From IMG/VR virus record IMGVR_UViG_3300031994_000060: a DNA stretch of 24,178 bases; one strand, written 5' to 3'. Positions 1 through 24,178 of this stretch are shown here, piece after piece. A program made the position numbers and the translations under genes. The stretch comes from an uncultured virus (IMG/VR IMGVR_UViG_3300031994_000060) (taxonomy: Duplodnaviria > Heunggongvirae > Uroviricota > Caudoviricetes). Under the pieces are notes generated by a model. That model was not told where the DNA came from. It saw only the letters and a program-made list of their open reading frames with translations, and made no database searches. Numbering within the stretch: the first letter of the stretch is position 1; the number at the start of each line of letters is the position of its first letter.

Positions 1-3000
1 ACCAATCCTTTCAAATCATTGTAATATTCTTTTGGAATTCCTCATCTGTTATTATATCAGAACTTTTTACTGAATATACATTTGAATTTCATAAATCTAT
101 ATCAAATGAGAATTCTCTATTAGTAAGAACTGTTTGAGATTCTGGATAGAATGGTTGTGTAGAGAAAGTTACAGTAAAGTTGTTTCATTCACGAACAATC
201 TTTCAAGTATCCCTAAGCTCTAATAAAACATCTTGTGTCATCCATGAGAAATCAGAAACCAACCCTCAACCATATACATATTGGTTTAGATCTTCTGCTG
301 ATTTCATTACACTAGATTTGTTTATTGCTTCATATAAATCATTGAAGCTAGCTCTAGTTCCATCAGCAAAATCACTTTTGATTTCTCATAAGAATGCTCA
401 ACGTCATACAAGACTTCTTGAAGTTCAAACTTTTAAGTCTTTATCTGACATTCATTCATATTGTTTTAATATTGATAATGTGGCGTCAGAGAATGTATCT
501 CAGAATCTTAAACTGTTTTTAGCTGGATCATATCTTTCAAAGAAGTCTTTAGCTTCTGGTGATAATAGACTATAATCTAATCAAGCATTACTAGCATTAA
601 GATCTATTGTTATATCTCAGTAGTCCACTCTTCATTCATAGATATCTTCAAATAATTCCATAGCATTAGTATCTGAGAATAACAACTTCATCTTTTCCCA
701 AAGATCATTGAAGAATGCTATTACATCATTACTTAATCATAGTGCTTCATTGTATCTATTATTAACATATTCTCAGAATCTTTCTGCTAACCATTCTTCA
801 GTAATCTGTGTTTGATATGCTTTCTCATCTTCAGCTCTTAGCTCAGCATAGATTTCGTCATATCATCTAGAACTAGCAAAAGATTCTATCTGATCCTTAT
901 GCCTATAATAAGTATTCTCATATAAATCAGCTATTCTTTTTTTAGTCCATTTCTTATCATGCATTAGTGATATAGCTTCATGGAACCATTCATGTCATAG
1001 AGTTCAAGATAATACAAGATCAGGATTAATTACAATAGCATGTAATTCTCTAACATGTGCGGCATTAGCTCTTCAACTCATAATATCTTGAGCTGCTGCA
1101 TCAATCTGTTCTTTATATATTATCTGTTCTTGTTCAGTAAATCATCTAGTTCTAATTTCTCAAGTTCTTCTATCAACTTCTATTATTCTTTGACTAGGTA
1201 ATCTTCTTGAGATATCATTTATTCTTGCAGTAACTTCTCTCTGAGATAAAGGTCTTTCATTCATAACTCATACCTCATTTCATGAAGCTTTTGCTTTAGC
1301 TAATGCATCAAATTCTTCTTCTGTTAAGTCTCAAAGTTTTCTTTGATTCTTATATGCAAACTCTTCTTCTCGTCTTCTATCATATTGTTCTAGTTCATAC
1401 TTCTTAGAATATGCAGCTTTTCTTCATGCTTCGTCTCATTCAAAAGAAGCCTTATTAATTTCTTCTTGAGCTTGTGCTAAAAGATTATCAACTTCGGATT
1501 TCTGGTATTCAGAAATCTTTTCTTGGATTTGGCTTGTAGCTTTTGTAGTCTTCTTCTTATATTTCTTTAAGGCTCATTTTCTTTCTAGCTCTCATAATTT
1601 ATTATTTAATTCTCAAATACGTTTTAGATCAGCAGCAGTATCTGTCAACTTTTCCATTTCTATAATACTCTTAGATAATGCTTTTAATATTCCTTTATAA
1701 ATTTCTGGATGATCTAAAACATCTTGAAGTAATTGTTCTTCTGTCCAATCCATAAGTCATTTTCTTTTAGCCCAATCAACAAGCAATTCTTTTTCTCAAT
1801 CAGACATATCAAGAATCTTCTCGTCTTTATATAATGCTAACAAGATATTATCTCTTCTGTTCCTTAATCTTTTTATCTTGGCATCCTCTAATCTTTGTGG
1901 TTCTTTTCAGAACATTGAATATCAATAGATATTGATAAGATCATTATCATTAGTAATAACCTTATTCTCTCAATACATAATATTCTTAATCTCCAGTTCA
2001 GAAGGAGTAAATTTTCAAGAATCAGGATTCTTTATTCTATCTATTGTTCTAATGATTTGAGCATCTGTAAGTTGTGTATCTGGATATTGATTAATATAAT
2101 TCTTAGCTCTTGATACATAATCTTCACCAACACCTAATTGTTTAGCAACATCTCTCCATGATCAAGATCTAATAGGAATATATCTTCAGAATTTATCATT
2201 TCTGAATTCATCTATTTTATTATTAAGATATCTTTCAGGAGTCATACCAGGAGTAGATCTTAGTTTGTGATACATATCTGCTGGCATCTCTACACCATAA
2301 AGTTCTTTATAAATTTCTTTATAATAGATATCTTCATCAGGTACATCAACCTTTACTTTAACTTCGTAATATCTATCTTCTATAATTTTATTACCTCTTT
2401 CTATATCAGCATCATCTAAGAATTCTACTCTCTTAGCATATTGTCTAGTTTTAGAATCTGTAAGATATGCTTTTACTTTAGTATCACCAATAGAAATTAC
2501 ACCAACAGGTTTTGGATCGTTAGCTCTATATAAGTTATAGATTCAACCATCAGTTGTTTCATAATGGAATGCTTCTACTGTTCCATCTTCTCTAGTAAAT
2601 AATACTGTTCCTTGAGGATGTGTTTCTTTAAATACTTTACTATCTCAGAATTTATACTGATCTACTTTTCATTCATATTTTCATTGTTTATCAAAGATAG
2701 GGGTTTTTACTTTATATGAAGGAATTCTAAATACATCTTCTCTTTGAAGATCAATAGCTATTCAATCATTTGTGATATTGATTCTTCTATTTGTCATCAT
2801 GGCTGTTAGAAGATTTTGTTTATCAACAGGTGATAAAGTCTTATCTCTCATAACATAATTGAAATAACTTTCAGGAACTCTATCAGTATATCCTGGAATA
2901 AGTTCTCTAAATCCAGCATAAGAAGTTTGTCACTTTCTTATATAGATACTGAAATTACTCCATTGTTCCCATGTAGTAGTTCTTTCTGCTATCTCTTGTC

Positions 3001-6000
3001 AAGTCCTAATAGTATCTCTTGTAACAACAGTATCATTCCTAAATGTTTTATCAAGATCAGTATTAAATACTTTTAATTCAGTTTTTCATTTAACTACCTC
3101 AAAATCTACGCTCTTTCAAGATCAAGCTAAATCTCATAGTAGTTGGATACTTAATACTCTACTGTTAGGATAGATATCTTCTGGTAAATATTTTCATCAA
3201 TACTTTTTTAGTTTAGAGAAATCAACATCTGCTGTTGTAGTAATAGTAGCAATATGGATTTCATTGCTATCATATACATGATATACTACTGTTCCATCAG
3301 ATGTATCTACTCATTGTCTTTCATATGTAGCTTTTATAACTCATTCCTCATTTCTATTAAATGGAGTTATAATATGATCCTTATCTGCATGAACTTTTAC
3401 AATAGCATTTCAATCTTCTTTATTTACTTTAAGATAGATTTCTCATTCATTACCGAAAATCTTTTTCTCTTCATAAGTATCATTGAAAACATTTCTACCT
3501 AAAGCTCTTTCCTTAGTTCATTTACCACTATCATCTATACCATAGATATGACTACCTTTTCAAATCTTTCAATCCAAATCTCATTCGATAGCTAAGATAT
3601 TTCAATTCTTATCAACCCTTCTCCAATTTCTTAACTTCATTTCAGCTTCTTCTTTTGTAAGTCAGACATTGATATCATTGATAATATCTTCATACAAATT
3701 TATTCACATATATTTAAGATCAGGATTTCATCACTTTGCAGGATCCTTAGCATCTTCAAAAGATTTATATATAAGCCAATTACTTTCATCTTTAGGTCAA
3801 TTCAATACGAAATCAGCAACATGATTAGCTCTAGCTTCTGATACAAGCTTAGCATCATATGCTCTTCAGAATTCCTTTATTGCTGATACTAATTCTTTAT
3901 ATGAAATATCTGCTATTGTTTTATTTTTAAATCTTTCTTTTAAGAAATATTGGAATGTATTAAACACAGTAGGTCACATAAGTTTTAGTCACTCATATAA
4001 TGCTCATTTGTTTAGATACTTATTCTCAATAAAATTATTAACATATCTTGCTAAGTGTCTACTCATCCATCCATCACCAGCCTCATCAATAGGTCATTTT
4101 CCCATAAATGTTTCTTTAGTTTTTGGAGCATTAAGTAAATCATACTTATATAGATTTAATCTAATAAGCCTATTCTTAAGAAGATCTTCTCTAATCTTTT
4201 TTATATTCTCTTTACCTGCAGGTGTAAAATGTCGTTTATGATCTTTTACATCTTGTTCTATCCGTCATGCTTTAGAATATTTATCCTTATATTTTTTTAC
4301 TGCTAATTTTAATGTATTGTTCTTAACATACTTTCTTTGTGCTTCAATAAGCTTCTTTACATTACTAAGATTAGTAAAATTATCTAATGTCTCTCATCAG
4401 TACAACTTAGTTCTAGCATTAGATACTTTATTCCAGAAAGCCTTCTCCTCTTTAGGAGTAGCGTCTTTCTTTAGATTCCATTCTAGTGTTTTAGTGGTTT
4501 TACCATCAGGTCATTTAGTGTATTTACTTCTAACTAACCTATTAACACTAGGATCAACAGACTTATTGAATTTTAGTTTTAAAGCTTCATCATTATCTTT
4601 AATAAGTTTCTCTCCAAAATCATCAATTGCTTTTCTAGCTATATCAGACATAGCCTGAACCTTTGAAGTGAATTGTCATTTAGTTACATACTGAGTTTCA
4701 TCTGCTATAAGTCATGTCTCTTCTCTAATCTTAGTTCAGAGTTCTTTGATATCTTGGAGTGACATCTTAGACATCTTATCTTTTACTTCTGCATCAGATA
4801 ATCCTTTTCATGTTTTAGGATCTTTATATACATCTCTATACCACCAAGTAACCCAACCGGCATCTTGTGATTGGAGTTTTGTTAATCATAAAGAGTTATT
4901 AAACTGTTTTGCTCTAATCCATCCTGAAAACATTCATCAAAAGATATCCATAACGAGATCAGAATATTGATAATCATAAGGAGTCATTCATTGGAATGTT
5001 GCACTTGTTAATGCTTCTTCTGCTAACCAACGTCATAGATTCTCTAAACGTAATTCTCGTTTATCTTTAGTAGTTAAATTCTTTAATCATTCCTTAGCGT
5101 CTTTTCTTCTTTCTGCTATTCACTTAAAGAATCTCTTAGTTGCATCACTAACTCTTTTAAAGTATGTTCAAGAATCAACTAATCATTTAATCTTCTCTTG
5201 TTCTGTTATAATCTTTTCACCAGCATCAGCCAATTTCTCTCAAGCACTAGCAACCTTCTCTGTATTCTTAGCGAGCTTATCTATTTTACTTCACTTAGAA
5301 ATTACAGTTCACAGGTTTTTAAGTTCGGCTGTTTTTACTGGTAAATCAACAGCTTTTGCTTCAATAAATGCTGTAATAAGATCATCGATTACTGATTCTT
5401 TATTTCAGATATAGTTACCAACTTTAGCATACCATGGCATCTGTTGATATACTGGATGTACTCTTTGTTTTAAATCGAATATAGAAGAGTTCTGTGCTCC
5501 ATAGAAATAAGCATTAATATCATCCAACGTAGGCATATTAGTATTTCAGCTCTTATCCCATAATGAAGATAATCATTGTGCAGTAGCTTCTGTTGTTCAT
5601 GCTACTTGTCATGCTAATGATGATACTTTACCTCACAATATAGCACTAGCATATGGTAATGTATTCACTTCTGCCAATGTCCATTCTTTTAATAATTCTG
5701 GAATAGATGAAGAATTTACAACATTACCTCAGTGATCTAAAACTTTCTTAGCCCATATAAGTTGGTTTGTTGTATAATAGGTATCTTCTCCTGTACTTCA
5801 GATAGTGTTTACTAAATTAATTAATGTTCTTTCTTTATTTGTAAGCGTTTTACTTTTTAGTAGTTTATCCAAATTCAACCTTAATGGATTTCAGTTTTGT
5901 GTAATTATCTTAGCAATACTCTCTTTAGATTGGTCATGAGTCTCAAGAATATCTCAAACCATATTTATATAAGAACCTTTCTGTTTCATTAAATAGTTTC

Positions 6001-6889
6001 TAAGATTCCTATAATCACTATCATCACCGATGTTAGCCATAAGCTGATCTAGACTTTCGAATGTTAATGCAATAGCTCTATCTTGGAAAGCTGATTCAAG
6101 ATCTCATAATGTTTCATCAAGTGTACTCTCACGTCCTCATGGATTTCTTGAAGCAATATATAGATTCTTAATCATCTGATTAGCTTTCTTCTCTACAAGT
6201 TTTTTAGTGTTTACATTAGAAAAGATACGATTAAATTCATCCTGTGTAATCGTTTCTATTCATGATCAACCTGTGGTTTGTGCTTTAAGGTTTGGATCTT
6301 GGATACCAAATAACTTCTTAACATTTGGTGTTAAGTTTTCTGTAATATAATTAGTATCTACTTTAGTTGCTCAATATTTATTACTCTGAAAATTATCTTC
6401 TCTTATAGAGTCTGGAACAATAAGATTTAATATCGTAGACCTAACTCAATGTGGTCTATCTGCTACTGTATATTTGTCTAGTTCCTCTTTATCATCTTTT
6501 AATAATTGTAATTGTGTAGGAGTTAGTGTATCCTCATTAGCTTTTAAAGTATTGTATTCATTTAATGTATTAAGATATTCTGCTCTAAGTCCATCAGTAT
6601 TCTGAGATACTCAATCTTTCTTTAATCAATACAAAGCTCTATCAACATCTTGTTTATCTTTAGATAAGAATTTACTTGCAAGTCATACAACTCATTCAGC
6701 AATTCAATCTTTAAATCATGATAACCAAGATTCCTCTTCAGCTATTTTATATGTATTTCAGTCGGCTCATACTTTTGTTCATGAACTTTCTTTAGTCTCA
6801 TCTTGGGGTTCGTTTCAAGTCACTTTAGCTCAAATCTTTTTTGCTCAAGTTTTTAACAATCAATTCATGAAGAACTCGACTACTCACAT
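1..6889 (-). CDS. Giant (>2,290 aa, 3'-truncated by window edge) probable virion/ejected polyvalent protein with zincin-like metallopeptidase domain
   Basis: ATG at 6889 (MGVVEFFMNGLLKTGAKKIG with TGA=Gly). The same frame was open at every segment I translated, down to base 2. HEWFH at 994-980, followed by EEWLAERF and FFNDLWEKMKLLF...LFEDIYEGR, the typical MPTase signature of large phage proteins. Lys/Glu coiled-coil region at about 1300-1700. Confidence 0.85.
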
Positions 6890-6919: not shown

Positions 6920-9241
6920 TTAATACCAGAACGCATTATCTACTACCTCATATCTTGGTTGTGGTCTAGTATCTTGTAGTAATCCTCTAGGATCTTTAGA
7001 TTCCTGCTGTTGCATTGCATATTCCGTAAAGTTATCTACTTCAAATTTATTATGTGATAATCCTAAATGAGTCCAGAATGTCCAAAGACACATAAGCAAA
7101 CAATCTACGAAGTCGTCATGTCATGTCGCTCATTTATATTTAGACTTATTTGTATATTCATTCTTGAACTCAACAAAGTTACCAAGCTGCTCTATAAGTT
7201 GTTTACAATCATTATCCCAGATCTCAACCATTCAGTTATCGAACATCGTCTGTGCTGCTTCCACCATAAGCTTCTTAGGAACACGTTCCTCTGATGGTCT
7301 AGCTCATTTCCTAACATTATCTCCTCATGTCCAGAAATAGAGATATTGGAAGAAGATCCTTTGTCACCACATCACATCAACTACTGCTGGATGTGTAGAG
7401 TCCATAACTTTTAGGATAGGACAGTTATGCATCTTAAGCTCTTCAATAGCCTGTTTAAGTAGTTCGGCTTGCGGAATAAACGAAGATTTATCTTTGAAGT
7501 TAAGTGATCGTTCTTTACGAACAATTACTTTATTTCTCGATTCATCATATCCTGTAGCCAATACGGCTGAAGTATCAGCTGTCTGAGCTGGATCATAAGC
7601 TAGAACTATTCTTTTGAAGTTCGGCTTGATAATCTGTTGGGCATCTCATACACCACTAACAAAATGAGGCTGAGGATCTTGAACAAATCTTACTGGCTGG
7701 ATATATGGCTTGAAGTTCAACACCGCTTGAGATTCGGTAGATCTACAATAAAGCTCACGCATATATCTATCAGGATCATCTGCTAGATTTTTCTTAACCA
7801 TATCTTTATTGATAATCACTTCCACATCGTCAATAGTGTACCTCAATCCCGCACATTCATCAGGGATTATTCAAGTACGCTCTTTCTCTTTTCGTAGTGT
7901 AATGATATGTTGATCAATGTCAATAATTTTTGAGCTTTCTTTTTCGTATTCATTACAGAGTTTTACTGGCCAATCATATATTCTATCAACTCATTCTTCG
8001 TCTTCAGAATAGAATGTAGAGATTACAAGTAATCTCGCTCATTCGTTATCAACGATCGGCATAATCTTATCAACAATTCTTTTAGGGATCAACAACGCCT
8101 CGTCGATAATCACAGCATCTGCTGCATCACCGACTGCTGGAAGTTTTCAGAGTGCTGAATAGAATTTGGTTTGTGCCAAAACTCTTTTCTTACCTTGTGC
8201 ATCATAGGTGATGAGTGATAAGATATGGTTAGCTGAATCGTAATTCATCATCTGTTTAAGCCAATCAAATTCGTTAGTTAATGCACTTACATAGTCCATC
8301 ACTTGTCATACCGCATCAAAATCTTTTGATAAGAAAATTACAGAACGAGGTCTGGTTCCGGCTTTATAGTTGTGTGCCAACATCTCTTTCAAGATCTCCT
8401 GAGATATCAAAAACGTTTTTCAACTACGTCTCGGTGCTAATACAACTGTCCTTCTTCACATACGCTTTGAGACGTCGGATTGTCGCCGCTGGTTGAGAGT
8501 TGATCTCTGATGGTATTTATATTTAGGGTTGGCATTCCATTCCTCTAATGCACGATTCAGCATTTGGTAACGGAGTGCGGCAGTATAGTTATCTTTTACT
8601 GTAACGTTTAAATCGTATTTAGGAAAATAGAAATCGTAGTCTTGACCTACTTGAAAGTCTTGGGCTTGTGAATTAGCTTTAGGCTTGAATACGATATGGT
8701 CATGCTGAGCATATCACATGATTGATTCTTTCATCATGATCAATTCCCCGTCCATCCCCATAGACTGTTGTTTGAGTTCTGAAGATCTTCTGATTGCTTC
8801 TTCTACAACATCAGGGTCTTCCGACTGAAGCTGTTCTTCGATTTCCTCTTGGATAGCTACGATAGGTTTCTGGCATATAAGATACAATTCTTCACCTCAA
8901 GTAGAATTTACATAGATATCATAATTCTCAGTTAGTGCTTTATGAGCTCAGAGCGTATAGTCAGATATGAAACCTAGATTAGATAGTTCGATAACTTTCT
9001 CATACCGAGAGAGTGTTATATTCTTTCGGTGTGGATCGTTTTCTGCATCTTCGTGTGTGACATCGTAGAACGGGAATTTGAATTCATATGGTACTCAATA
9101 GAGATTAGGTATGACAAAAGTCCTGAAGTCAGGATTCTCTTTCTTGAACTTCAAGGCGGCTTGTCCATCGAGCACATCGTTCAGATTAGTACCGTCATAG
9201 ACTAATCATTTAGTGTAATCTCTAGTTAGGTATCAAAGCAT
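6920..9241 (-). CDS. terL: Terminase large subunit (773 aa) with long N-terminal extension
   Basis: With TGA=Gly: Walker A VLAPRRS[TGA]KT (TGA at 8422-8420), Walker B AVIIDEA, coupling motif LLVIST, RNase H-like nuclease VLAYDPAQTADTSAV and C-terminal GHDDFVDCL. Joins the supplied fragments 7364-7561 and 7646-7846. Confidence 0.93.
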
Positions 9242-9725
9242 TCTCTTGGGTTACTGTTTTAGATTCTTCATATAAATCAGCAAGACAACGTCAACAGTTG
9301 GCTGGTCAGACTCACATCGCCGTCCCTAAAAACTGATAAACCAGCTTTCTAAGCTGTGTCACTACCGTCTCGTTCTGGAATGTCGGGTCGGCATTACGGC
9401 ATTCTTCGGCTGCCGTCAAGGCTACAGCATAGTGCTTGAACTGACACCAGTAGTCGTTGTCGATTTTATAGCGTTCGAAAAAATTACGCTGCAAGTCTCT
9501 ACGGAGGTCGTAGAGTTCTTGGCGTTCTTTGTTAGCTTGGACAATCTCTTTACGGATGTCTTCGCGCATAGTATCTTTCTCGTCTTGCGTGGCGTCGATC
9601 TCAGGAACGTTGTCGTGTTCCTCCATGAGATTCATGATCTGCTCTTCTTTGTGATCAGCCAGAGCAATTAGATTACCTATCGCTAATAGGTAATCTAAGG
9701 CTGCGTTACGTGAGGTTTGTTGCAT
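9222..9725 (-). CDS. 167-aa hypothetical protein with YWCQFKH and NCGRC motifs, overlapping the terL start
   Basis: Supplied ORF 9312-9725 extends through three TGA codons (AMGVGPANCGRCLADLYEE...) to TAG at 9224-9222. Confidence 0.85.
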
Positions 9726-9748: not shown

Positions 9749-10738
9749 TTATAATGATATTCTATTCTTTATTTTATTATATTCCTGTACTTCATGGATA
9801 TCTGGAGTTCATCAATTTAACCCCATAGTTTTAGCATAATCATTAAAGTTATTAACTCATAACTTATCTAGAGCTTTTCTTTGTTCATAATACCATTGAG
9901 TTGATCCTCAATATTTCTTAGCTTCAGCCCTAAGCTGTTCAGCAGTCATTCATAAATCATTAGCCCATTTAGATTCATTTGTACGAATTGCTTTGCTATG
10001 TGGTGTTAGAGCTTCATCTAAAAACTTTTGGTTAGAAGCTTTTAAACGATCTCAGTATGTCCACTTTCTATATGGAACTCATAATTGAGATGCCATGTCT
10101 GGAGTGAGCTTCTGTTTTAGAGAATTGTCATAAGAGAACATAGGATGCAAAGGTGTTGTTGTATCTCAGTCTTTTGTCACAGAGAAATTAACTTCTGCGG
10201 CATTTGTTTTATATTTAGCCATTCCAGGATTCTCAGCAGCATACGCTCTTTGTTGATATGCTGGAACTTCACGACTCTGATTATACATCCTCTTTGAAAG
10301 ATTGTTATTTATTTCCACATGCTTAGTAACGTAATCCCTTGCTTCTTTTGCAACAGCATTTTGTTTCGCAGGAGTATCCGCTTTATTAACTTTATCTAAT
10401 ATAGCCTTCCATCATTTCTGTGCTGCCTTAGGGAGTTGCTTGGCTAGCTCTCAGATACCTACTAATGCAGCCGCGTTATCTACTCATACTGGTAGTCATT
10501 CTCATATAGCATATGCTATTGAGTCGGCCTGCTTAGGCTGTTGCATCTCTCATTTTAATTGAGAAGCTGCTTTATCTATATTCTCTCTGATCTTAGTTGA
10601 GTCTTTACCAGCTAATGCGGCTGTACCTCCAGCTATTCATTTGACGGCTGTTGATCAAATATCTACTATTGGATCTAAAATTACAGATTTAGTTCAGTTG
10701 GCTACTCAGTTGAGGAAGTTGGTTACGGCGTTTGCCAT
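9749..10738 (-). CDS. 329-aa hypothetical protein, Ala/Gly-rich amphipathic N-terminus (possible virion/pilot-like protein)
   Basis: ATG at 10738: MANAVTNFLNGVANGTKSVILDPIVDIGSTAVKGIAGGTAALAGK..., open with TGA=Gly to TAA at 9751-9749. Function inferred from composition and position only. Confidence 0.82.
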
Positions 10739-14114: not shown

Positions 14115-14639
14115 ATGTTAAATCTAGAAAACATTTCAACAGAAAAATTCCCAGCTAAAAAGGAATTTCTTATCTGTAGTAATTGAAGCTTCACCATTTC
14201 TGAGAATGGTATTGTTAGGTTTACTTATGCTAAGAAGCCTAACAAAGAACTTATTCGTTCAGAGAATGCTAATCTTCACGAGCTTAACAAAGAGCTTAAA
14301 TGTGCTATTAAATCTAAAGCGGATATGTATGAGCTTAGAAGTATCAGAAGTAAGATAGCTTCTAAAGAAAAATTTATTGAAGTTATTTCTAGGGAAATGG
14401 TACCAGCACAATATGAATGCCGAGGATTAGATAACGAAGTAGCATTCAAAATGTTTCAAGAGCTTGCTAAGAAAGCTAAGAGTAATAATGTGCGAAGTGT
14501 AGCTTATGCTACAGGGCTTAGGTTTGAAGAAGAAGAATGTCCTAATGAAGACATTGAGTTCAACGACCCAGACGGAATGCTAATTACTTATCGGGAGTGG
14601 CATTACACAGGGAAGAAGAGTTTAAGAGAGGCCGAATAG
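14115..14639 (+). CDS. 174-aa hypothetical protein, paralog B of 11711-12283
   Basis: MLNLENISTEKFPAKKEFLICSN[TGA]SF...YAKKPNKELIRSENANLHELNKEL...; extends supplied ORF 14325-14639 upstream. Confidence 0.9.
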
Positions 14640-14655: not shown

Positions 14656-14671
14656 GTTATTAGCAATAGGT

Positions 14672-14928: not shown

Positions 14929-15030
14929 AAAATGAAATGAAATGAAATGAAATATAAATGAAATAAAAAAAATGAAAATAAAAAATAAAATGAAATGAAA
15001 TAAAATAAAAATAAAATGAAAATAAAAAAT
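14929..15030. repeat. A-rich degenerate (AAATG/AAAAT)n microsatellite
   Basis: aaatgaaatgaaatgaaatgaaatataaatgaaataaaa..., about 100 nt with no C. Confidence 0.85.
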
Positions 15031-15054
15031 GTTTTATATTATATATGAATTATA

Positions 15055-15270
15055 ATGAAAGATTTTGTACAAGTAATTACACTATTGAATGCAATACATC
15101 TTCCAGAAGAAATGGATTGTGTATATTATATTGAAGATAATGAAGTGAAGGTTGAAACATTTGGTTGATATGAAATAGTATGTGAATGTAATGATAGTTG
15201 ATATGAATATCTGAATGAAAGATTAAATGAAAGATTAAGATTGTTTAAAGATACATATGAATTGAATTAA
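15055..15270 (+). CDS. 71-aa acidic hypothetical protein
   Basis: MKDFVQVITLLNAIHLPEEMDCVYYIEDNEVKVETFGGYEIV...; two TGA=Gly, TAA stop. Confidence 0.75.
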
Positions 15271-15296
15271 TGTTTTAGATTTTAATATATATTATT

Positions 15297-15533
15297 ATGT
15301 TGTATGAAGTATTATTAAATCCAATGAATAAGTTAGTCGCTGAAGTTATTACTGAAACATCTGATAACTTGAATGAAACTACACTTGAAACATTAAAGAT
15401 TTATAGAGTGTATTGACAATGAACATTGAAAGAGAAATCGATTTTATTATATGAAGCACAATGTGTTGACGACGAATTTGAAATTGAAGATATCAAATGA
15501 TTAGTTGATGCATTTGTTCCATTTGAAAAATAG
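15297..15533 (+). CDS. 78-aa hypothetical protein
   Basis: MLYEVLLNPMNKLVAEVITETSDN...; three TGA=Gly, TAG stop. Confidence 0.75.
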
Positions 15534-15558
15534 GTTTTTATTTTATAATATATATACT

Positions 15559-15867
15559 ATGTCTTACGAAAAAGAAAACAGCAACTACGAATTCCTACTT
15601 GAATGGAGTGACCCAGTTCCATTCACAGGTTATGGATTGGAGAATGGTGCAAGAAGAGGTACTTGGCAAAGAGGTTATACATTCTTCCTTGACGAGTATG
15701 ATACAAGAGAATGAGTTCATTGTATTGATTTGAGAGTAGTGCAACCGCATACTTGAAGTGATATATTGATTGATACATATGATACATATGAACAGCTTGA
15801 AGATAGTTTGTTCCTTATATTACAATTTTTATGAACTGTATCACCAGTGTTACACATAGAGGATTAA
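15559..15867 (+). CDS. 102-aa hypothetical protein
   Basis: MSYEKENSNYEFLLEWSDPVPFTGYG...REGVHCIDLRVVQPHTGSDILIDTY... Confidence 0.8.
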
Positions 15868-15886
15868 TTTCCTCTATGTAATTTTT
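15854..15886 (+). terminator. Stem-loop over the stop codon, probable terminator
   Basis: ACATAGAGGA-ttaatt-TCCTCTATGT then aattttt. Confidence 0.5.
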
Positions 15887-15905
15887 ATATAATAAAACAA
15901 CCACT

Positions 15906-16073
15906 ATGAAAGACTACGAAGCACTTGGTATGTATTGAATACTAGTAGGTATTTGTTGATTTATCTTCATTTGATTATGAGTATGGAAGTGATTTTTCAT
16001 ACCGCTTGGCATCACCACTTGGTGAGTGTCAATGTATATATTGTTTTATGTGATATCACATAAGGATTTTTAA
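15906..16073 (+). CDS. 55-aa two-TM membrane protein
   Basis: MKDYEALGMYGILVGICGFIFIGLGVWKGFFIPLGITTWGVSMYILFYVISHKDF (six TGA=Gly in hydrophobic helices). Confidence 0.75.
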
Positions 16074-16091
16074 TTACTAATTCAAACCGCA

Positions 16092-16466
16092 ATGATTAGA
16101 CTATGAACACCAGACGATTACTTACCATCTCACCAATTCGAATGGTGAGAACCTGAAGACCTTAGAGGTAATCAATGTAGCAAACCTAATAAAGGTATTG
16201 TTAATTGATATAGACAAGCTTTAGTCAACCCGGATACTAGGAATAGATTATTCCTTGAAGAATCTATATCATATGATAAATGATTTATGTGAAGCAGATT
16301 AAGATTACTTGTAATGGATTGAATGACTTGAAGAATTTCATCTATTGCACAAGTAATGTCTAGAGAAGAAGCTGAACATTTGATTGATGTAATCATAGCT
16401 TATGATAATTGAACTAATGATACAATAGTATATGACGAACATTGAAAAGCTATTGATATAGAATAA
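16092..16466 (+). CDS. 124-aa hypothetical protein
   Basis: MIRLGTPDDYLPSHQFEWGEPEDLRGNQCSKPNKG...; open with TGA=Gly. Confidence 0.8.
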
Positions 16467-16493
16467 TAATTTATATGGATTATTCATACCGAA

Positions 16494-16628
16494 ATGCAGA
16501 ACATAGAAGAATTACAGCAGACAGCAGACGAGCTTAAGGAAGCTAGAGATAATTCCGAAGACGAAGACGATTGGAATTATTATGATTATAAATTGCTTAA
16601 GGTGTTAAAAGCAATTGAAGATTTATAG
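16494..16628 (+). CDS. 44-aa acidic hypothetical protein
   Basis: MQNIEELQQTADELKEARDNSEDEDDWNYYDYKLLKVLKAIEDL; ATACCGAA-ATG start context. Confidence 0.7.
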   Translation: MQNIEELQQTADELKEARDNSEDEDDWNYYDYKLLKVLKAIEDL

Positions 16629-16655
16629 TTTTTTATATTTCTAAATAATATTAAT

Positions 16656-16847
16656 ATGATAAATTACAGAAGTTATTGGATAGTACAAAAAGGTACTAAC
16701 TCATTTTTAATCCTTGATCAGGATAAAATGCCAGTGGATATTCAAACTACATTATCGAAGAGTAAACATCTTATTGATGTGATACTTGATTCAACGGTAT
16801 CATCTACAACAATAGAAGATATCAATGAACTAGAAAATCTATGTTAA
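16656..16847 (+). CDS. 63-aa hypothetical protein
   Basis: Supplied ORF; fits operon spacing and has the shared upstream TTTTTATATTTCTAA motif. Confidence 0.75.
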   Translation: MINYRSYWIVQKGTNSFLILDQDKMPVDIQTTLSKSKHLIDVILDSTVSSTTIEDINELENLC

Positions 16848-16876
16848 GGTTTTTATATTTCTAATATAATATCACT

Positions 16877-17131
16877 ATGAAAACAATTACAGCATTGAAA
16901 CCTAAATTGGTTTCAGCCAAAGAGATTGCAGATCTCAAAACAAAATTCTGAAAATTAAAAACAACGGTGTCTACCTACACAACAAAGTATGGTACACTAT
17001 GTACATTGTATACTTTCTGGCAATGAAAGGAGAAGGCAGGACAGTTCCATGATTATTGATACTGAAAAGTATTCAAAGACTTTGTACATAAATTGTATTA
17101 TACAGACAATGAGAATTGGCTGGATAATTAA
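16877..17131 (+). CDS. 84-aa hypothetical protein
   Basis: MKTITALKPKLVSAKEIADLKTKFGKLKTTVSTYTTKYG... Confidence 0.75.
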
Positions 17132-17168
17132 TCCAGCCTTGTAATTTTATTTGTTTAATTCAAACCGA

Positions 17169-17516
17169 ATGATGGAACAATCAGAAAAAGATATCGCATC
17201 TGAGATTACAGATATACTTATGAAATGTTATCATGCGATCTGAGATAGTGATACAACTAATGAAGAGATTGATAATATTCATAATGAATTGAAGAAGGCA
17301 TGCAGACTTATCCATAATTGATTGTGAGAAGATGCCCAAATATATCTATCCGCACTTGCATCACCTGAGATTAAAGATAAGTGATCAGCATGGCCTGTGT
17401 TTGTTAACATGGTATTGCTTCAGTATATTATCTCAATGATCCATAATGAACTAGAAGACGATGATCAACCCGAAGAAGACAATTCACTCAAGAAACTTTT
17501 TACATTCAATGAATAA
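17169..17516 (+). CDS. 115-aa hypothetical protein
   Basis: MMEQSEKDIASEITDILMKCYHAIGDSD...; open with TGA=Gly. Confidence 0.78.
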
Positions 17517-17518
17517 CA

Positions 17519-17881
17519 ATGAACATCATAGATTTACCACAACCAGATCGAGAACATTTTAACAGTGATCAGGAATATTATTTGCAAGATGTCAAGTCGT
17601 GATTAAAGGCATGGTATTATTATACAGTTATGGACTACCTAAAATGATACACACCACTTGATCTTGATAAAGAAACTTATCTTGCAAATATAGAAAAGTT
17701 TTATAATATATATGTACAACATTGTATAGACCATAACATCGTTGCAATGCCAAGGAGGGAAGCTTTCGAATGAAAGGAGATCCAAGAGATCCTTGAGAGA
17801 TGGAATGATGTATATGCATATACAGAGTTTGATCCTGATATTAAAGTTAAAATCAAAGACCTGGAAAGTAACGATGCCTAA
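17519..17881 (+). CDS. 120-aa hypothetical protein
   Basis: MNIIDLPQPD[CGA]EHFNSDQEYYLQDVKSGLKAWYYY...; starts 2 nt after the previous stop. Confidence 0.78.
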
Positions 17882-18017
17882 TCAAAAAGAAGTTACTTCC
17901 CAGCACTGGAGCTGATGACTACCGTGCTGGTGTATGGATGGACAAAGCCTAAAGCTTTGAACATTCCATTTGTATAAGCGGACATGATGCAGTTTTAATT
18001 CTTAATCAATAAAGACC

Positions 18018-18062
18018 ATGGCTTGTTGAAGAAAGAAGAAAAGCTGAGGAAAGAGAAAGTAG
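18018..18062 (+). CDS. 14-aa basic microprotein MACGRKKKSGGKRK
   Basis: Has the same T-rich then ACC-ATG start context as neighbouring genes, and sits in the main unpaired stretch of the structured region. Confidence 0.5.
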
Positions 18063-18377
18063 GATTACTTTCCCTTTCGATGGATAGAGTAACTCTAAAG
18101 GTTATGATATCCAGATTTGTTTTTCATTGTGGTAAAAGGTAAAAGAGTAAATCTTGAGAATGTCGTAACCGTGAGGCCGACAAGGGTTTCTGTATCCTTC
18201 ATGGTTCTCAAGATTTATGTCTGAGAGATCCCTAAAGGGTTGATCAGGCAAGGTAGTAAGTTGTAAAAATCCTTGACCTAGATAAGTCTTTTGGTTGTTT
18301 GGCTTATCTAGGGTATGGTTGTCTGTCCCTAAAGGATAAGATAATCTATCATTATTATTTTGCAGAAACTAACAATT

Positions 18378-18417
18378 AGCCAGACGGTATGTCCCACTCA
18401 TACCGCTTGGCTTTTTG
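18378..18417 (+). terminator. Terminator-like hairpin
   Basis: AGCCAGaCGGTATG-tcccact-CATACCGcTTGGCT then TTTT. Confidence 0.6.
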
Positions 18418-18445
18418 TAATCTTTTATTCTTAATTGAACCGACA

Positions 18446-18799
18446 ATGTATACAATCAAAGCACCTAATGGAGACAAACTAACAGTTGAATTAAAGTATT
18501 GATCTTATGCAGATAATCATAATCTGTATATAGGATTAGTAGTTGATAAAGATTATGAAGATCATGAAGTGTTTAAATGAGAACCTTGGTGTGATCTCAC
18601 AGTTAATATAGGTAGTTTATTACCTAATGAAATAGCATTAGATGTAAATAATTTTCCTGATGCATTAGAGTTTGTAAAAGAAAATAATATAGCAAACTTA
18701 ATAAGATATACTACATCAGGATTTGTAAAGTATCCTATTGTAAGATTTACAGATGAATTCTTTAGAGAGAATTCATTACATATATTAGCACAGTGTTAA
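18446..18799 (+). CDS. DUF4313-like protein (117 aa)
   Basis: YADNHNLYIGL...GEPWCDLTVNI...IALDVNNFPDALEFVKENNIA...SGFVKYPIVRF matches the DUF4313 pattern as I remember it; needs HMM confirmation. Confidence 0.75.
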
Positions 18800-18871
18800 T
18801 AAAACATAGTCGTTGTAGATAGTGGTAACGACGATGTCTTATTATATCTTTTATAATCTTATACCGAACAC

Positions 18872-19207
18872 ATGTACACAAAAATTAAGAACATTGCTAT
18901 TGTAATTTTATTAGTAATCATTGCTTGATTATTAGTAGTTGCATGCACAAGAAAAGCTTGAGCTGTTGATCCTCAAGATGAACAAGCTAAAGCATTAATG
19001 GATGAAATAGATTACTATAAATATTTGCTTGAGTATGAGAAACAAGCTTGAGAAGATTTCAGAACAAAAGAAGTTGAATGCTGAAAAGCATTGAAAGAAC
19101 TTCATAGTAAATGAGTTTATGCTAGAGCTGAACAAGAGATAGCTAAACAAAAGATTAATGAGTTATCAGGATTGTCGGGTTTTATTCAGCAGAGCCAACT
19201 GCAGTAA
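18872..19207 (+). CDS. 111-aa membrane-anchored protein or lipoprotein with coiled coil
   Basis: MYTKIKNIAIVILLVIIAGLLVVAC: basic N-terminus, hydrophobic helix, lipobox-like VVAC. GGGTTTT lies near the 3' end. Confidence 0.8.
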
Positions 19208-19686
19208 CAAACCCAGAGCCTGAACAAACCGAAGTGTCTGAGGAAACCAAAGAGCAAATAACAAAAGTGCTTGAAACATTTGATCCTACACCAGTGACAA
19301 CAGAAGAACATAACTGAGTGAAGATCATACATGAATGATTTTCAAAAGACAGTGAAGTTCAGGCGATGGTTCAATATGCTTATGATGTATGATGAATGGA
19401 GCTGGTTAAATTAATTGAATGTGAGAACTGAAATTGGAACCCAATGCTTCAATCATCAGTAGTTAAGAATTGAGTAAGAGAACCATCATATGGATTATGT
19501 CAGATTCATAAGAAATATTATCCACATATCATTAATGATCCGAACTTCTGGAGTGATTGGAAAGTTCAGATAGATTATTGTAAACAGTTAATGGATAATG
19601 GAACTAGCTTCTATGGACCGACAAGAAAGATTAAATGACAGTATTGTTATAATTATGTTGAAAGTCGTTTTACTTTTGTAGAATAA
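19177..19686 (+). CDS. Lysozyme-like/lytic transglycosylase domain with P/T/E-rich linker, probably expressed as a -1 frameshift fusion to 18872
   Basis: LIECENGNWNPMLQS...REPSYGLCQIH resembles the SLT catalytic Glu and GLMQ motifs. The frame opens at 19159 and has no ATG until about 19366. Confidence 0.72.
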
Positions 19687-19692
19687 ATAACT

Positions 19693-19947
19693 ATGTTAAT
19701 TCAATGTTATAAACTACCGCAAGTTGAATACAAATATGTTTCATCATTAGATGAAAATGATTATGTAATTATAATTAAAAGACTTATTGATTGATCTTGA
19801 TCTAAAGTAAAGTGTGATTACTACGATACTGAATGAGCAGGATTAGAAGTATTGTCTTTAGGTAATTGAGAACATAGAGAAATTATTCAAGCTAATGATA
19901 TAGAAGATTGTCCAACACTTAAATGATTTTATATCGTAAGAGAATAG
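19693..19947 (+). CDS. 84-aa hypothetical protein
   Basis: MLIQCYKLPQVEYKYVSSLDENDYVIIIKRLIDGSGSKV... Confidence 0.75.
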
Positions 19948-19949
19948 AT

Positions 19950-20168
19950 ATGGATCTACCAATGACAGTTAGAGAATTAAACCGTTTTATCCAAATCCAA
20001 ATGGAGAAATGAAATGGTGATAAACATGTCTTTATATCATCAGACGATGAGTGAAATGATGTACATTGATTGTATTATCAGTTCAGTAAATTTGATGAAG
20101 ATGATTGGTATAAAGAAACAGTAGAGGATGCAGGTTGCACCCTTGATAATAGTATCTTATTATGATAA
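19950..20168 (+). CDS. 72-aa hypothetical protein (MTVRELN..., SSDDEGN motif)
   Basis: MDLPMTVRELNRFIQIQMEKGNGDKHVFISSDDEGNDVHGLYYQF... Confidence 0.78.
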
Positions 20169-20199
20169 GATAGTTTTTTATTTTTTATTCTAAACCAGA

Positions 20200-20661
20200 A
20201 TGAAACTAAACCAGAAAGAAATCAACATGTTAGCACAAACATTAGTTGATGACATTTATGATCAAAACAAATTCAGAGAACTTGCAGAAGCTGAAGGAAG
20301 GAAAGCTTATGAAAAGTTCTTGAAAAGAAAAGAAGTCAAGGAGATGATTACTTTTCTAAAGAAACATGAAGAGGTTAATTACCTTGAACTTGATAGTAAG
20401 TTCCTATGAAAAGATTGGAGCTGTAATAGCTGTTGAGATTTTTATTTTGGTTATGCATCAAACAATCTTAGGTTTTGATTGGATAATAACAATGGTGTCT
20501 TAACAGGTTTCATGAACTGAGCATCAAAGAAGTTCCCTAGTAGACACGAAATAGAAAGAAAAGTAAGAACCGAATTAACATATAGAATGTTATGAGGTGA
20601 GGAACTTAAAGATGTAATTGATTGATTAAAGAATTCTATCAAGAAAGAATTTAAATTGTAA
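20200..20661 (+). CDS. 153-aa hypothetical protein
   Basis: Supplied ORF 20200-20409 reads through TGA (FLGKDWSCNSCGDF...) to TAA at 20661. Confidence 0.82.
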
Positions 20662-20671
20662 TTAGATTACA

Positions 20672-21049
20672 ATGAACCAAACCGCAGTAGACCAAAAGAT
20701 GCGAGAAGAACTTAATGCTAAATATAAAGATAGAGTTAATGAATTGTGTCACTGAGATTTGAATGTGATCGATTGAAAGATCATCATCACAAAGTGGTGA
20801 TGATCAAACAATCGTATCATATTTCCAGATGAAAACCAATTAAGTATGTATCTTGATTGAGTTGAGTGACAGGTGCATATAAGTCAACGAGCACAATACC
20901 AAGAAGATTTGAAACATATAATATATAAATGTAATTATTATATTAAAGAGATTAAAGCCAATCCTGAATATTTTAGTGATGATCGAGATGTAGATATCAT
21001 TACAGCATTTCAAAGTACTAAAGATATTTTATCTAAGTATGTAAATTAA
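20672..21049 (+). CDS. 125-aa hypothetical protein
   Basis: MNQTAVDQKM[CGA]EELNAKYKDRVNELCHGDLNVIDGK...; three CGA codons. Confidence 0.78.
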
Positions 21050-21050
21050 G

Positions 21051-21389
21051 ATGTTAAAACCTAAAGAAGAAATGATTAGTAAAGTAACAGAAATGTGTCC
21101 AGCATTTCCTATATATCTTTCATGAGAAGAAATGGAAAATATCTTATTCGAATGTAATGAATGAGATATGGACTTCTTTATAGAAGAACTTATATCATCA
21201 GCAGGAAGTTGAGACTGATCATTGAACATATCATACTTTGATGATAATGCTTGATGTATATGTCTTGTTCAAGATGTTGATTACAATATGCAATTCAATT
21301 CAGCTGAAGATGTAGTAGCTACTATATTATATTGGCAAGACAGAGTTAATTATTTTAAAGCAAAATTTTTACAACTTAAAAAAGATTAA
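21051..21389 (+). CDS. 112-aa acidic hypothetical protein
   Basis: MLKPKEEMISKVTEMCPAFPIYLSGEEMENILFECNEGDM... Confidence 0.78.
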
Positions 21390-21390
21390 G

Positions 21391-21702
21391 ATGGTAACAA
21401 AAAGAGAAGCACTTGATGCAGAACTAATTGATAATACATTTCCACAAGACTTTACAATAGCAGATATGTTTTGAATATCAGCTATTAAAGATACATATGA
21501 AAGAGCTTTTAATGAGTGGAAAGATGATATCAAATATATGACAGCATTGTCAATGGCATTAAACCATAAGATATTTGAATGGTATCATAAGGATAAAAAG
21601 ACAGCACAAGTATATAATGATTTGTTTATTGAATGTGATGATTACATTCATGAGAACTTTAAGTGAGATGATCTCACATATTATTTTAGAGTTACTGATT
21701 AA
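21391..21702 (+). CDS. 103-aa conserved phage hypothetical protein
   Basis: TFPQDFTIADMFGISAIKDTYERAFNEWKDDIKYMTALSMALNHKIFEWY...ENFKGDDLTYYFRVTD resembles a widespread phage family (recalled, not searched). Both TGA codons fall at Gly positions. Confidence 0.85.
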
Positions 21703-21706
21703 CAAT

Positions 21707-21928
21707 ATGGAAGGACGAAACATGAAAGTCAAAGACTTACTTAATGCACTTAAACAATATGATCCTGAAGCATGAGTTACATTAAGATTATGGCATCATG
21801 AATATGGTGTAGATACTTGATGTACTGATAATTACATTCTCAATATCTATCATTATACATATGAAGATGAAGAGACAGGATGAGAAGTTACAAGTAAAGA
21901 TATTGTTTTAGATCTTGATGTAAATTAA
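21707..21928 (+). CDS. 73-aa MKVKDLL-family hypothetical protein
   Basis: MEG[CGA]NMKVKDLLNALKQYDPEAGVTLRLW... Confidence 0.75.
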
Positions 21929-21929
21929 G

Positions 21930-22130
21930 ATGAAGGTTAAAGACCTAATAGAAAGATTACAAGATTGTAATCCAGATGCAGAAGTAAGTATATGATATAA
22001 CGATACATATACAGATACTGTAAAACATATTATTAAAGTAGAACCTATTGATAAGATACATAACGAAGCAGTTGTTTATATCTTTAACTACTGATGAGAT
22101 GAAAAAGAAAGAACTTCTTGAAGCTTATAA
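21930..22130 (+). CDS. 66-aa MKVKDLI-family hypothetical protein
   Basis: MKVKDLIERLQDCNPDAEVSIGYNDTY... Confidence 0.75.
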
Positions 22131-22356
22131 TAAATTGTTAGAAGAAAAGTTAGAAAGAGAAAGAAGAGATAATGAAGAATTTATGGACTTTCAATATGAT
22201 CAAGAGAAAAAAGAAATGTATATGATTACATATAAAAAATGATATCCTAAAGATTGGAAGATGTATGTATTTACTTATTGATGAATAGATACTTATTGAA
22301 GATTGATATTTAATGATAAGTGAGAAATGATAACACCTGTTTATAATGATAAATAG
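22099..22356 (+). CDS. 85-aa hypothetical protein
   Basis: MKKKELLEAYNKLLEEKLERERRDNEEFMDFQYDQEKKEMYMITYKKGYPKDWK... Confidence 0.75.
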
Positions 22357-22363
22357 AATACAA

Positions 22364-22648
22364 ATGAAAGTAAAAGAACTTATAGAAAAACTAAGTAAAA
22401 TAGATTGAGATATGGAAGTATATATTGATGATTCTGAATACTGACCTTGAACATTTGATTATATAAGAAAATGAATAAAAGCTGAGTTTGAATGAAACTG
22501 ATATACACTAATTTATTCATACGATTTGAAAGATATAGTTAATACGAGAATGTCTTGGAATGAAAGAGGTAAACCAATAGTATCAGAAAAGAAAATAGTA
22601 ATTCTAAGTGATTGGTGCTTAGAAGATAAATCAGATTTATTTATTTAA
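22364..22648 (+). CDS. 94-aa MKVKELI-family hypothetical protein
   Basis: MKVKELIEKLSKIDGDMEVYIDDSEYGPG... Confidence 0.78.
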
Positions 22649-22656
22649 TTAAAGTA

Positions 22657-22743
22657 ATGAAAGCACCACTACGAATGCAGATAATAATGTTTATATGAAG
22701 TATATGTCAGATTTTATTATTTATTTATATACTATGAAAGTAA
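22657..22743 (+). CDS. 28-aa hydrophobic membrane peptide
   Basis: MKAPL[CGA]MQIIMFIGSICQILLFIYILGK; fills the intergenic gap and overlaps the next start. Confidence 0.5.
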
Positions 22744-22916
22744 AAGAATTAATTAAACAGCTTCAGGAATATCCTGAAGATATGGTTATTCAAATCCAGA
22801 TATATGAAAGTGATGATCATTTTGCTTGATGAGATTATGAATATTATGATCCTGATCTTAAAGAAATGTATAAGGATGATGATGAATGACAACATAAATT
22901 TTTAGTTATATATTAA
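22734..22916 (+). CDS. 60-aa MKVKELI-family hypothetical protein
   Basis: MKVKELIKQLQEYPEDMVIQIQIYESDDHFAGGDY... Confidence 0.75.
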
Positions 22917-22928
22917 TTACAAACCGAA

Positions 22929-23510
22929 ATGCACTTTGCAATGACCGTAGCTTTGCCAGAAGGTGAATCAGTTTGAGATTTACTTGATCCATTTTGTGAA
23001 TCAATTTATTCATGGCACGAGGATTGATCAGTAACTTGACCAGATTGAAAAGTATATCCTGAATGAGACTTTGCACAATATACTTTTTATGATTGGTTAT
23101 GTTTATGATGAAGACGAGATGGATATATCAAATGAAAGAGATGAGCATATCCAGAGATAGCTTTTGATCTTTGAGAAAAAGATAAGAGATATCCAGAGAT
23201 AGATTGGAAATGGAGATGATCAGCTTTCATTAAGAAGTATATCAAATGATTTGGTTTTGATAAGAAGCTTAGTAAATATCCACAAACATATTCATACTTC
23301 GATCAGAACTATCTTGATGAGAATTGAGAACTTGATAATTATCCTGAGAGATTTAATTACATCAAGAAGAGATGAGAGACACGAGAACAAAATGAATATG
23401 ATGAAGCAGCTTATCAAAAAGAAATTAAGGAACGAGAGAAGAGAATTAAGAAATGGTATAACAGTATACCAGATGATTATGTAATTTATATTATTGACTA
23501 TCATATCTAA
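22929..23510 (+). CDS. 193-aa conserved phage protein (DWxxxGGRW ... DxHI family)
   Basis: MHFAMTVALP...FYDWLCL[TGA][TGA]R[CGA]DGYI...IPDDYVIYIIDYHI. Confidence 0.85.
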
Positions 23511-23893
23511 TGAAAAACTTTTTAGACGATCAATATATATTTGATGCAGTTGAAAAACTTACAGCAGAATTAGATGCTTCTGATTATAGAGAAGAAGAAG
23601 TAGCTAATAAGATATATGAAATGTTTAAAGTAGATCATATTGAAGCTGGTATTTATACAGCTTTATGATTTTTTTGAACAGCTTGATTTATGGCAGGTGA
23701 TTGATGATTAATGGATCGGGAAATCACTAGAGAACCTGATCATTATTGTTGTGTCGCTTGATGATTTGATTTCGAATCATATCGATCACTTAAACTTACA
23801 ATGAAGTTCTTAGATGAAATAACAAATGTTTTATTTAAGTATGACAAAATATCAGAATGAAACATACAGACAGACGATATCAAAAAAGAATAA
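23510..23893 (+). CDS. 127-aa hypothetical protein
   Basis: MKNFLDDQYIFDAVEKLTAELDASDY...; TAATG overlap with the upstream gene. Confidence 0.78.
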
Positions 23894-23901
23894 AAGCTAT
23901 C

Positions 23902-24178
23902 ATGGATCCATGTATAGCAGTGTTGAAACAAACACATTTACAAGATGATTTAAACTTATGATATCTAACAAGAAGCTGGTGTACAGCTAACAGTAGATGA
24001 GTAGTATTAGAAGTATATTGACAAGATAAAGATAGATTACATTGGAGTGTTAACTTAATTGAATGTTATGATATGGAAGATATGTTAGTGATCTTAGAAA
24101 GAATAAGTATCATACCAAAAGTTTTAGATTTATATGCAGACCGACATGCCAGAGCAACCAGTAGTTATAGAAATATTT
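23902..24178 (+). CDS. Hypothetical protein, truncated by window end
   Basis: MDPCIAVLKQTHLQDDLNLGYLTRSWCTANSRGVVLEVYGQDK...; open to the end. Confidence 0.7.

Follow-up and report, generated by a model that had tools for sequence, protein, structure and literature searches.

The stretch of DNA analysed here (24,178 nucleotides, hereafter the window) is recorded in IMG/VR as IMGVR_UViG_3300031994_000060, an uncultured virus of the Caudoviricetes, and has a GC content of 32%. Four genes lie on its minus strand, namely a giant open reading frame (ORF), the gene of a terminase large subunit and two genes encoding 167 and 329 amino acids (aa), and the plus strand carries two paralogs and 25 small genes. 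Under code 11, ORFs of at least 90 aa occupy 10.4% of the window, and this share rises to 83.6% if TGA is read through, compared with 24.9% for TAG and 45.6% for TAA. Reading in code 25 gave 90 ORFs of 60 aa or more, of which we took 31 as genes; these span 81.0% of the window, which would fall to 11.9% if each were cut at its first TGA, and 30 of the 31 contain in-frame TGA. Their 405 Gly codons consist of 283 TGA and 122 GGN, and of the 29 closed genes 24 have TAA as their stop and 5 have TAG, which is partly by construction as the ORFs were defined by these stops. An earlier note, made from the letters of this DNA alone, had proposed that UGA encodes Gly throughout the window (code 25) and that all genes end in TAA or TAG; the gain in coding density that it named as a check is borne out by these figures.

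We consider it highly probable (about 0.85) that the window is part of a ruminant-gut tailed phage of ~75–90 kb, as estimated from relatives, which is written throughout in the code of the Absconditabacterales (SR1), with UGA read as Gly, CGA and CGG as Trp and only UAA and UAG as stops; the codon meanings are shown by conservation in relatives, and translation by such a host is presumed. A sheep gut metagenome is the probable source: Logan contigs from the probable source run are identical to the sequence (0 differing letters), and strains ~91–97% alike, covering the stretch in pieces, occur in three other studies, two of them labelled bovine. The window's 193-aa protein is recorded in identical copy on contigs of up to 86 kb. 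The window belongs to a tailed phage (Caudoviricetes); the terminase lies in the window itself, and a portal/adaptor family and an SU10-type capsid fold were found only in a complete relative, G001.

Reading of TGA, CGA and CGG

Protein databases store these genes, the window's own included, in code-4 translation, so that protein columns mislead, and DNA was therefore fetched instead; protein-level columns, confounded by such gene calls, served as a lead only. For the DNA-level test, translations were aligned with TGA, CGA and CGG masked as X. The relatives are one viral and 11 metagenome loci (L001–L012) with terminases 35–76% identical, found with a four-sequence alignment; they supplied homologues for 11 of the 31 genes, with the paralog inside the window as a further partner. 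GGN stands opposite 34 of the 163 aligned TGA sites and TGG opposite none (0/163), and TGG is likewise found opposite none of the 87 aligned GGN sites. Columns in which TGA is mostly matched by Trp, named beforehand as the outcome contrary to Gly, were thus not what we observed.

The terminase large subunit (6920..9241, minus strand, 773 aa; phrog_2, E 1.5e-18), the sole gene of the window with a clear phage function, contains 20 TGA, 4 CGA and 2 CGG codons. Its Walker A glycine G274 is encoded by TGA at 8420..8422 (minus strand), in RRS-TGA-KT, and the 46 homologue residues aligned to it are G in 38 cases and W in 8, the latter probably code-4 gene calls of TGA. The phrog_2 score is highest when TGA is read as Gly together with CGA and CGG as Trp (71.2 bits), followed by code 25 (67.9), TGA as Ser (64.7), as Ala (63.2) or as X (59.0), and code 4 (57.2). 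Between the two paralogs of the plus strand (A, 11711..12283, 190 aa; B, 14115..14639, 174 aa; 45% identical), TGA at 14184 pairs with GGA at 11783 and TGA at 12242 with GGG at 14610, and a column likelihood over the window's own 123 TGA columns ranks Gly first. The DUF4313 protein (18446..18799, plus strand; PF14190, E 3e-15; 2 TGA) left Gly and Trp undecided (56.2 vs 56.5 bits), and the terminase of a relative likewise did not separate the codes. This conservation identifies TGA as Gly, not Trp; the codon positions cited for it in the earlier note (8422–8420, 14184 vs 11783, 12242 and 23106–23111) are all correct.

Code 25 as a whole did not stand, as the codons CGA and CGG (CGR) align with Trp. 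The window contains 28 CGR codons, 17 of them with a DNA homologue; TGG is found opposite 10 of these 17 sites and an Arg codon opposite one (one CGA of the window has AGA opposite), compared with TGG opposite 2 and Arg codons opposite 114 of 184 true Arg sites (AGA, AGG, CGT or CGC; Fisher p 5e-11, a value that overstates independence because the relatives are kin). Both codons contribute, with TGG opposite 7 of 12 CGA (Arg 1, p 1e-8) and 3 of 5 CGG (Arg 0, p 9e-5), and in the reverse direction CGR stands opposite 12 of 46 TGG sites. Counted per aligned codon (n = 87), CGR is matched by TGG 31 times, by CGR 19 times, by Tyr 7 times and by AGA or AGG (AGR) once; both Tyr and Phe also occur opposite CGR sites, as they do for TGG sites. 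The 156 codons aligned to CGT and CGC (CGY) sites comprised AGR 52, CGY 51 and TGG 0, which indicates that CGU, CGC, AGA and AGG still encode Arg. Column likelihoods place Trp first for CGA (44 columns, −119 vs −193 for Arg) as well as for CGG (19 columns, −43 vs −86), and Trp is present in 15 of the 19 CGG family columns.

At the level of single sites, all six CGR codons of the terminase have TGG in at least one relative. A CGG CGA pair at 8483..8488 (minus strand; aa 252–253) would read WW under the triple code, and of the 10 DNA relatives six have TGG and four have CGG at aa 253, while at aa 252 one has TGG and five have CGA. Paralog A has CGA at 12230 opposite TGG of B, CGG at 12224 opposite CGG and CGA at 12077 opposite TTT, and paralog B has CGA at 14493 opposite TGG of A and CGA at 14421 opposite TAT. 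In the 193-aa gene (22929–23510, plus strand) the codons TGA TGA AGA CGA at 23106..23117 spell GGRW, which we take to be a family motif; the earlier note was right in reading its GG as two TGA, but the W codon (23115–23117) is CGA and not TGG, and its statement that TGG is used for Trp is true but incomplete. Database searches found no standard-code homologue of this gene. G001, which is more distant, gave TGG 6 and Arg 0 for 17 aligned CGR codons, and a positive control with loci from genomes of the Absconditabacterales order gave TGG 33 and AGR 0 for 123. Judged from these exchanges, CGA and CGG are predicted to encode Trp in the window, on top of TGA for Gly.

Distribution of the recoded codons in the window and a complete relative

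Of the 230 Gly codons in the packaging-side genes 161 (70%) are TGA, as are 117 (75%) of the 155 in the small genes (Fisher p 0.25); CGR accounts for 10 of the 50 Trp codons in the former and for 12 of the 42 in the latter (p 0.46). Early and late were assigned from gene size and position. Packaging and small genes are equally recoded, as had been claimed, and the recoding in the window is not a late-gene switch; with both modules recoded, a code matched to the host, the explanation favoured in the earlier note, gives the better fit. The two paralogs are lower in TGA than the other genes (5/20 Gly codons, with 4/14 in A and 1/6 in B, vs 278/385 elsewhere; p 3e-5), both being still recoded. Unlike the rest of the window they combine low TGA with high CGR (6/9 Trp codons).

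The results on G001 (75,344 bases, complete with terminal repeats, terminase ~40% identical to that of the window) concern genes of this relative in regions that have no match in the window. Its capsid gene (573 aa, L015:2339-4060) has 51 Gly codons, none of them TGA (p 3e-11 given a TGA share of 38% in the genome), and 9 Trp codons, none of them CGR (p 0.07, not significant); free of TGA, CGA and CGG, it would be read identically in every bacterial code. All three codons are likewise absent from the neighbouring gene of 290 aa and from the gene for SSB, and TGA is rare in the holin (1/8) and amidase (1/17) genes (together 2/25, p 9e-4); the DnaN, dUTPase and helicase genes are TGA-rich. The capsid was assigned its SU10-type fold by an Atlas model, a single-sequence fold reaching a predicted local distance difference test score (pLDDT) of only 33.

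No tRNA gene was found in the window by ARAGORN or Rfam, as the earlier note had said of a suppressor tRNA. This says little, because the window represents ~24 kb of a larger genome and the complete relative has a tRNA with UCA anticodon. The latter has a 7-bp acceptor stem with G1:C72, C2:G71 and U73 and a long extra arm, and is labelled SeC by ARAGORN; from tRNA identity rules we presume that its charging would fit Gly better. Compared with the host genomes, only its T arm was matched. Searches of G001 found no gene for an RF-1-family release factor or a class Ic (Trp/Tyr) aminoacyl-tRNA synthetase, nor were tRNAs with a UCG or CCG anticodon called; the reading of CGR as Trp would therefore depend on the host. 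The UCA tRNA belongs to a cluster of tRNAs and tRNA-like elements (L013:5600-6800, minus strand) with Met(CAU), a weak candidate with a UAU loop and several elements that by eye have swollen anticodon arms, one of which was found by Rfam. G001 also encodes an RNA ligase and PNKP pair, which together with the tRNA-like cluster suggests tRNA repair or decoys.

A tentative idea, which we regard as rather unlikely, is that a widespread ruminant-gut clade of SR1 phages employs the three reassigned codons to add a layer of expression control, in inverse fashion to the known late-gene switch. Capsid, scaffold, SSB and holin genes would be purged of UGA, CGA and CGG, and the others would rely on a scarce UGA decoder boosted by the long-armed phage tRNA(UCA). 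If true, codon choice would set output in the phages of this clade, and the genes that are code-neutral might also be expressed by the standard-code bacterium carrying the SR1 cell, or be exchanged with it.

Host, rival explanations and known recoded phages

CGA and CGG as Trp together with UGA as Gly were predicted for the Absconditabacteria by Shulgina and Eddy (2021; eLife 71402, PMC8629427), according to whom these bacteria lack tRNA-Arg(ACG) and use tRNA(UCG) and tRNA(CCG), both with Trp identity, for CGA and CGG. Among the rows of their Codetta table covered here, all 10 Absconditabacterales have CGA as Trp, the 15 code-25 Gracilibacteria have it as Arg (12) or uncalled (3), and in this set of rows CGA as Trp occurs with UGA as Gly only in Absconditabacterales or in genomes labelled likely Absconditabacteria. 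The window has 33 CGA per 10,000, within the 13–37 of the Absconditabacterales and apart from the 0.8–6.7 or 126–224 of Gracilibacteria; beyond the same three reassignments, its CGN, AGR and UGG rates and its GC (32%) are also similar to those reported for Absconditabacteria. That code was predicted from bacterial genomes, and according to the accessible text of gTranslate (2026) CGA/CGG as Trp in Absconditabacterales is still a computational prediction only; here phage genes and DNA-level TGG/CGR exchange point the same way. Since TGA as Gly with CGA and CGG as Trp is the predicted Absconditabacterales code and Gracilibacteria keep CGA as Arg, the host is most likely a member of the Absconditabacterales, not of the Gracilibacteria. 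The Candidate Phyla Radiation (CPR) bacterium of either group suggested in the earlier note is thereby narrowed to one of them.

Two window proteins, the terminase and that of a 150-aa gene (19234..19686, plus strand), were searched in 141 genomes of the order, one per species, reached in the GTDB via the named record UBA3291. The 150-aa gene matched in 8 of them, 7 at E 3e-20 or better with 41–45% identity, and one order-genome copy sits between recG and a glycosyltransferase gene; in a class-wide sample of 401 genomes there were two matches outside the order, both weaker (E 1.5e-12 and 2e-4). For this gene, which has 61 homologues in databases, no Pfam or NCBIfam family was found and the match to a PHROG is weak (E 0.005); we take it to be lysozyme-like by its motifs, and it may represent a family of cell-wall enzymes common to SR1 and its phages.

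Under the Absconditabacterales reading the phage would be translated by its host, in which RF2 (release factor 2) has been lost and tRNA-Gly(UCA) reads UGA, as published or predicted. With no tRNA-Arg(ACG) in the host, CGA and CGG would be read only by the Trp-identity tRNA(UCG) and tRNA(CCG). No code switch would be needed, phage codon use having presumably drifted to the synonymous sets of the host under AT pressure; some relatives may add their own tRNA(UCA) to supplement UGA decoding, and the reassigned codons would be disfavoured in high-demand genes, as expected for weakly supplied codons.

Several observations weigh against this reading. Over all 532 family TGA columns the likelihood puts Ser slightly above Gly (−1691 vs −1725), probably because of poorly aligned columns of the giant protein and the masking of half of the glycines. 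No DNA homologue is available for 11 of the 28 CGR codons, the p values overstate independence as said above, and Pfam scores of four relative-phage proteins respond in mixed fashion to CGR as Trp (54.8→52.8, 33.0→32.2, 63.8→64.4 and 45.4→45.6 bits). Among 414 distinct spacers from clustered regularly interspaced short palindromic repeats (CRISPR) of the order, none lies within fewer than 5 mismatches of the window or its relatives; this set derives from partly read arrays in 37 of 50 loci, some overlapping, with Cas1 found in 33 of 141 genomes, and its best alignment has 5 mismatches over 25–27 bases. Nor was an integrated prophage found in the order genomes. The terminase matched in a single one of the 141, on a 66-kb TGA-recoded contig (C33 of G043) with terminase and portal and, within the 60 kb read, phage-like genes only, whose 10 aligned CGR codons face AGR in 3 cases and TGG in none. 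We gave this match no weight, because the contig is phage-like and the small number of CGR codons aligned on it tends towards Arg; its origin may lie in a host that uses a different code.

A 22-base partial spacer match at 13223–13244 was rejected as lying in AT-rich non-coding DNA. BLAST of window positions 4179–24178 against five genomes and of 15100–24178 against the 141 returned, outside arrays, only short AT-rich or in-gene matches; two candidates were scored per genome in one of these comparisons, so spacers could be missed, and a control on five genomes is weak, one of them (G137) itself belonging to the order. Many arrays beside cas1 in the order (L068, L071, L074, L079–L085) have 36-base repeats ending TTTCTACT..TGTAGAT, which in our assumption resemble Cas12a-type repeats. 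A literature search found no SR1-specific primer.

Plain table 25, in which CGA and CGG stay Arg and any code-25 CPR host including Gracilibacteria would do, shares TGA as Gly and can draw on the one CGA with AGA opposite and on the slight fall of some relatives' Pfam scores; it is very improbable in view of CGR sites that face TGG far more often than Arg, the reverse of true Arg sites even if the relatives are not independent, and that have Tyr and Phe opposite as TGG sites do. A little more weight, if still low, belongs to the possibility that the triple code holds in a host of another lineage sharing it, or that CGA and CGG are ambiguous, mostly Trp and sometimes Arg. In its favour are the lack of a spacer or prophage link, the blindness of Codetta to ambiguous translation and the possible reading of CGG as Trp by some Gracilibacteria (both stated by Shulgina and Eddy, PMC8629427), and the capsid of G001, with its non-significant lack of CGR. 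Codon rates and the shared gene at 19234–19686 nevertheless point to Absconditabacterales, to which, with the likely Absconditabacteria, the combination is restricted in the table rows covered.

A standard-code host with recoding supplied by the phage as a late-gene switch, in the style of crAss-like or Lak phages, would account for the UCA-anticodon tRNA of G001 and for the low TGA content of the paralogs adjoining the large non-coding gap. We hold it to be highly unlikely, given TGA in 30 of 31 genes, both paralogs included, a pattern in G001 that is the opposite of a lysis switch (capsid, holin and amidase avoid TGA; DnaN, dUTPase and helicase are full of it) and no release factor found there; by established decoding, moreover, the tRNA-Arg of a standard host would read CGA and CGG as Arg. 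TGA as Trp (code 4) is the least credible of all, as the W at TGA places in database homologues, and in the stored version of the window's own gene, reflects gene-caller artefacts, and code 4 yields the lowest terminase score and no TGG opposite any of the 163 TGA sites where GGN occurs 34 times.

Phages with TGA as Gly have been published already. According to the main text of Borges et al. (bioRxiv 2021.08.26.457843), code-25 phages have TGA in ~90% of their genes and host matching was proposed, and Liu et al. (2023; PMC10746230) report in theirs that clear recoding was lacking in only 6 of the 50 phages predicted for Absconditabacteria. The dense in-frame TGA of these phages of Absconditabacteria and Gracilibacteria is as in the window; they were translated with table 25 only, and the string 'CGA' is absent from both main texts. 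RSA-ATP1 (mBio 2026, PMC13059738), a code-25 phage of Strigamonas methylophilicida (Absconditabacterales), encodes a tRNA-Gly(UCA) to be compared with the UCA tRNA of G001. It differs in being a freshwater phage of 39 kb with related prophages and UGA in 60% of ORFs, as against 97% here, and its main text does not mention CGA or CGG. The two phages with AGG as Met from uncultivated Bacilli, the only phage analysis in the available text of Shulgina and Eddy (PMC8629427), likewise follow a sense-codon reassignment of the host and rely on host tRNAs; there one codon and no stop is reassigned, here two sense codons and one stop. The crAss-like, Lak and other code 4/15 phages with late-gene recoding, as described in the main text of bioRxiv 2021.08.26.457843, also have in-frame stops and in some cases suppressor-type tRNAs, but they concentrate the recoding in genes for structure and lysis and have hosts with the standard code, whereas recoding here is genome-wide and the capsid and lysis genes of G001 are depleted. 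A literature search, light on subscription papers and supplements, found no phage shown with CGA or CGG as Trp; the extension of the predicted code to a phage clade is expected and apparently undocumented.

The free swapping of TGG and CGR across phage relatives is independent support for the Absconditabacterales code, and virion proteins, being abundant in rumen metaproteomes, would make a first test at the peptide level practicable. The meaning of CGA could serve as a host marker by which phages of Absconditabacterales and Gracilibacteria are told apart without spacers. Three reassigned codons would appear to be no shield against viruses, which bears on the idea of viral escape as a reason for code change. 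Database entries in which Gly appears as W and Trp as R are mistranslated and hide homology. Searches with the terminase gave no match in INPHARED phages, IMG/VR (single proteins, DNA pattern) or GTDB contigs, and many of its 87 homologues at the 50% level are W-rich, as code-4 calls of TGA would give.

Remaining genes and non-coding stretches

The giant ORF (2..6889, minus strand; >2296 aa, open at its 3' end) contains 120 TGA, 3 CGA, 1 CGG and 26 TGG codons and has no PHROG or Pfam family match; orthologues in the relative loci L002, L004 and L007 are 27–31% identical, and from its position and size it is probably a virion or ejected protein. It contains a HEWFHE motif (aa 1966; 977–994, minus strand) followed downstream by EE, again without a family match, which we take to resemble the zinc-metallopeptidase site of large ejected or polyvalent phage proteins. 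Upstream of the terminase lies the 167-aa gene (9222..9725, minus strand; 3 TGA; phrog_15722, E 2e-5), with orthologues 66–76% identical, followed by the 329-aa gene (9749..10738, minus strand) with 18 TGA. The module of 25 small genes (15016..24177, plus strand), which from gene size and position would be early-type, contains 117 TGA vs 38 GGN and 12 CGR vs 30 TGG, with TGA in 24 of its 25 genes. Four of these between 21722 and 22916 share an N-terminal MKVK(D/E)L(I/L) and match the same function-unassigned PHROGs 5861, 22847 and 20907.

The divergent modules are separated by long non-coding stretches (10740–11710, 12284–14114 and 14640–15015) with GC-rich hairpin-like and very AT-rich segments, which could possibly represent an origin or promoter region. 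They also contain a 59-base repeat whose copies at 13561 and 14676 are 76% alike, as well as a tandem tract of GAAAT type (14921–15025).

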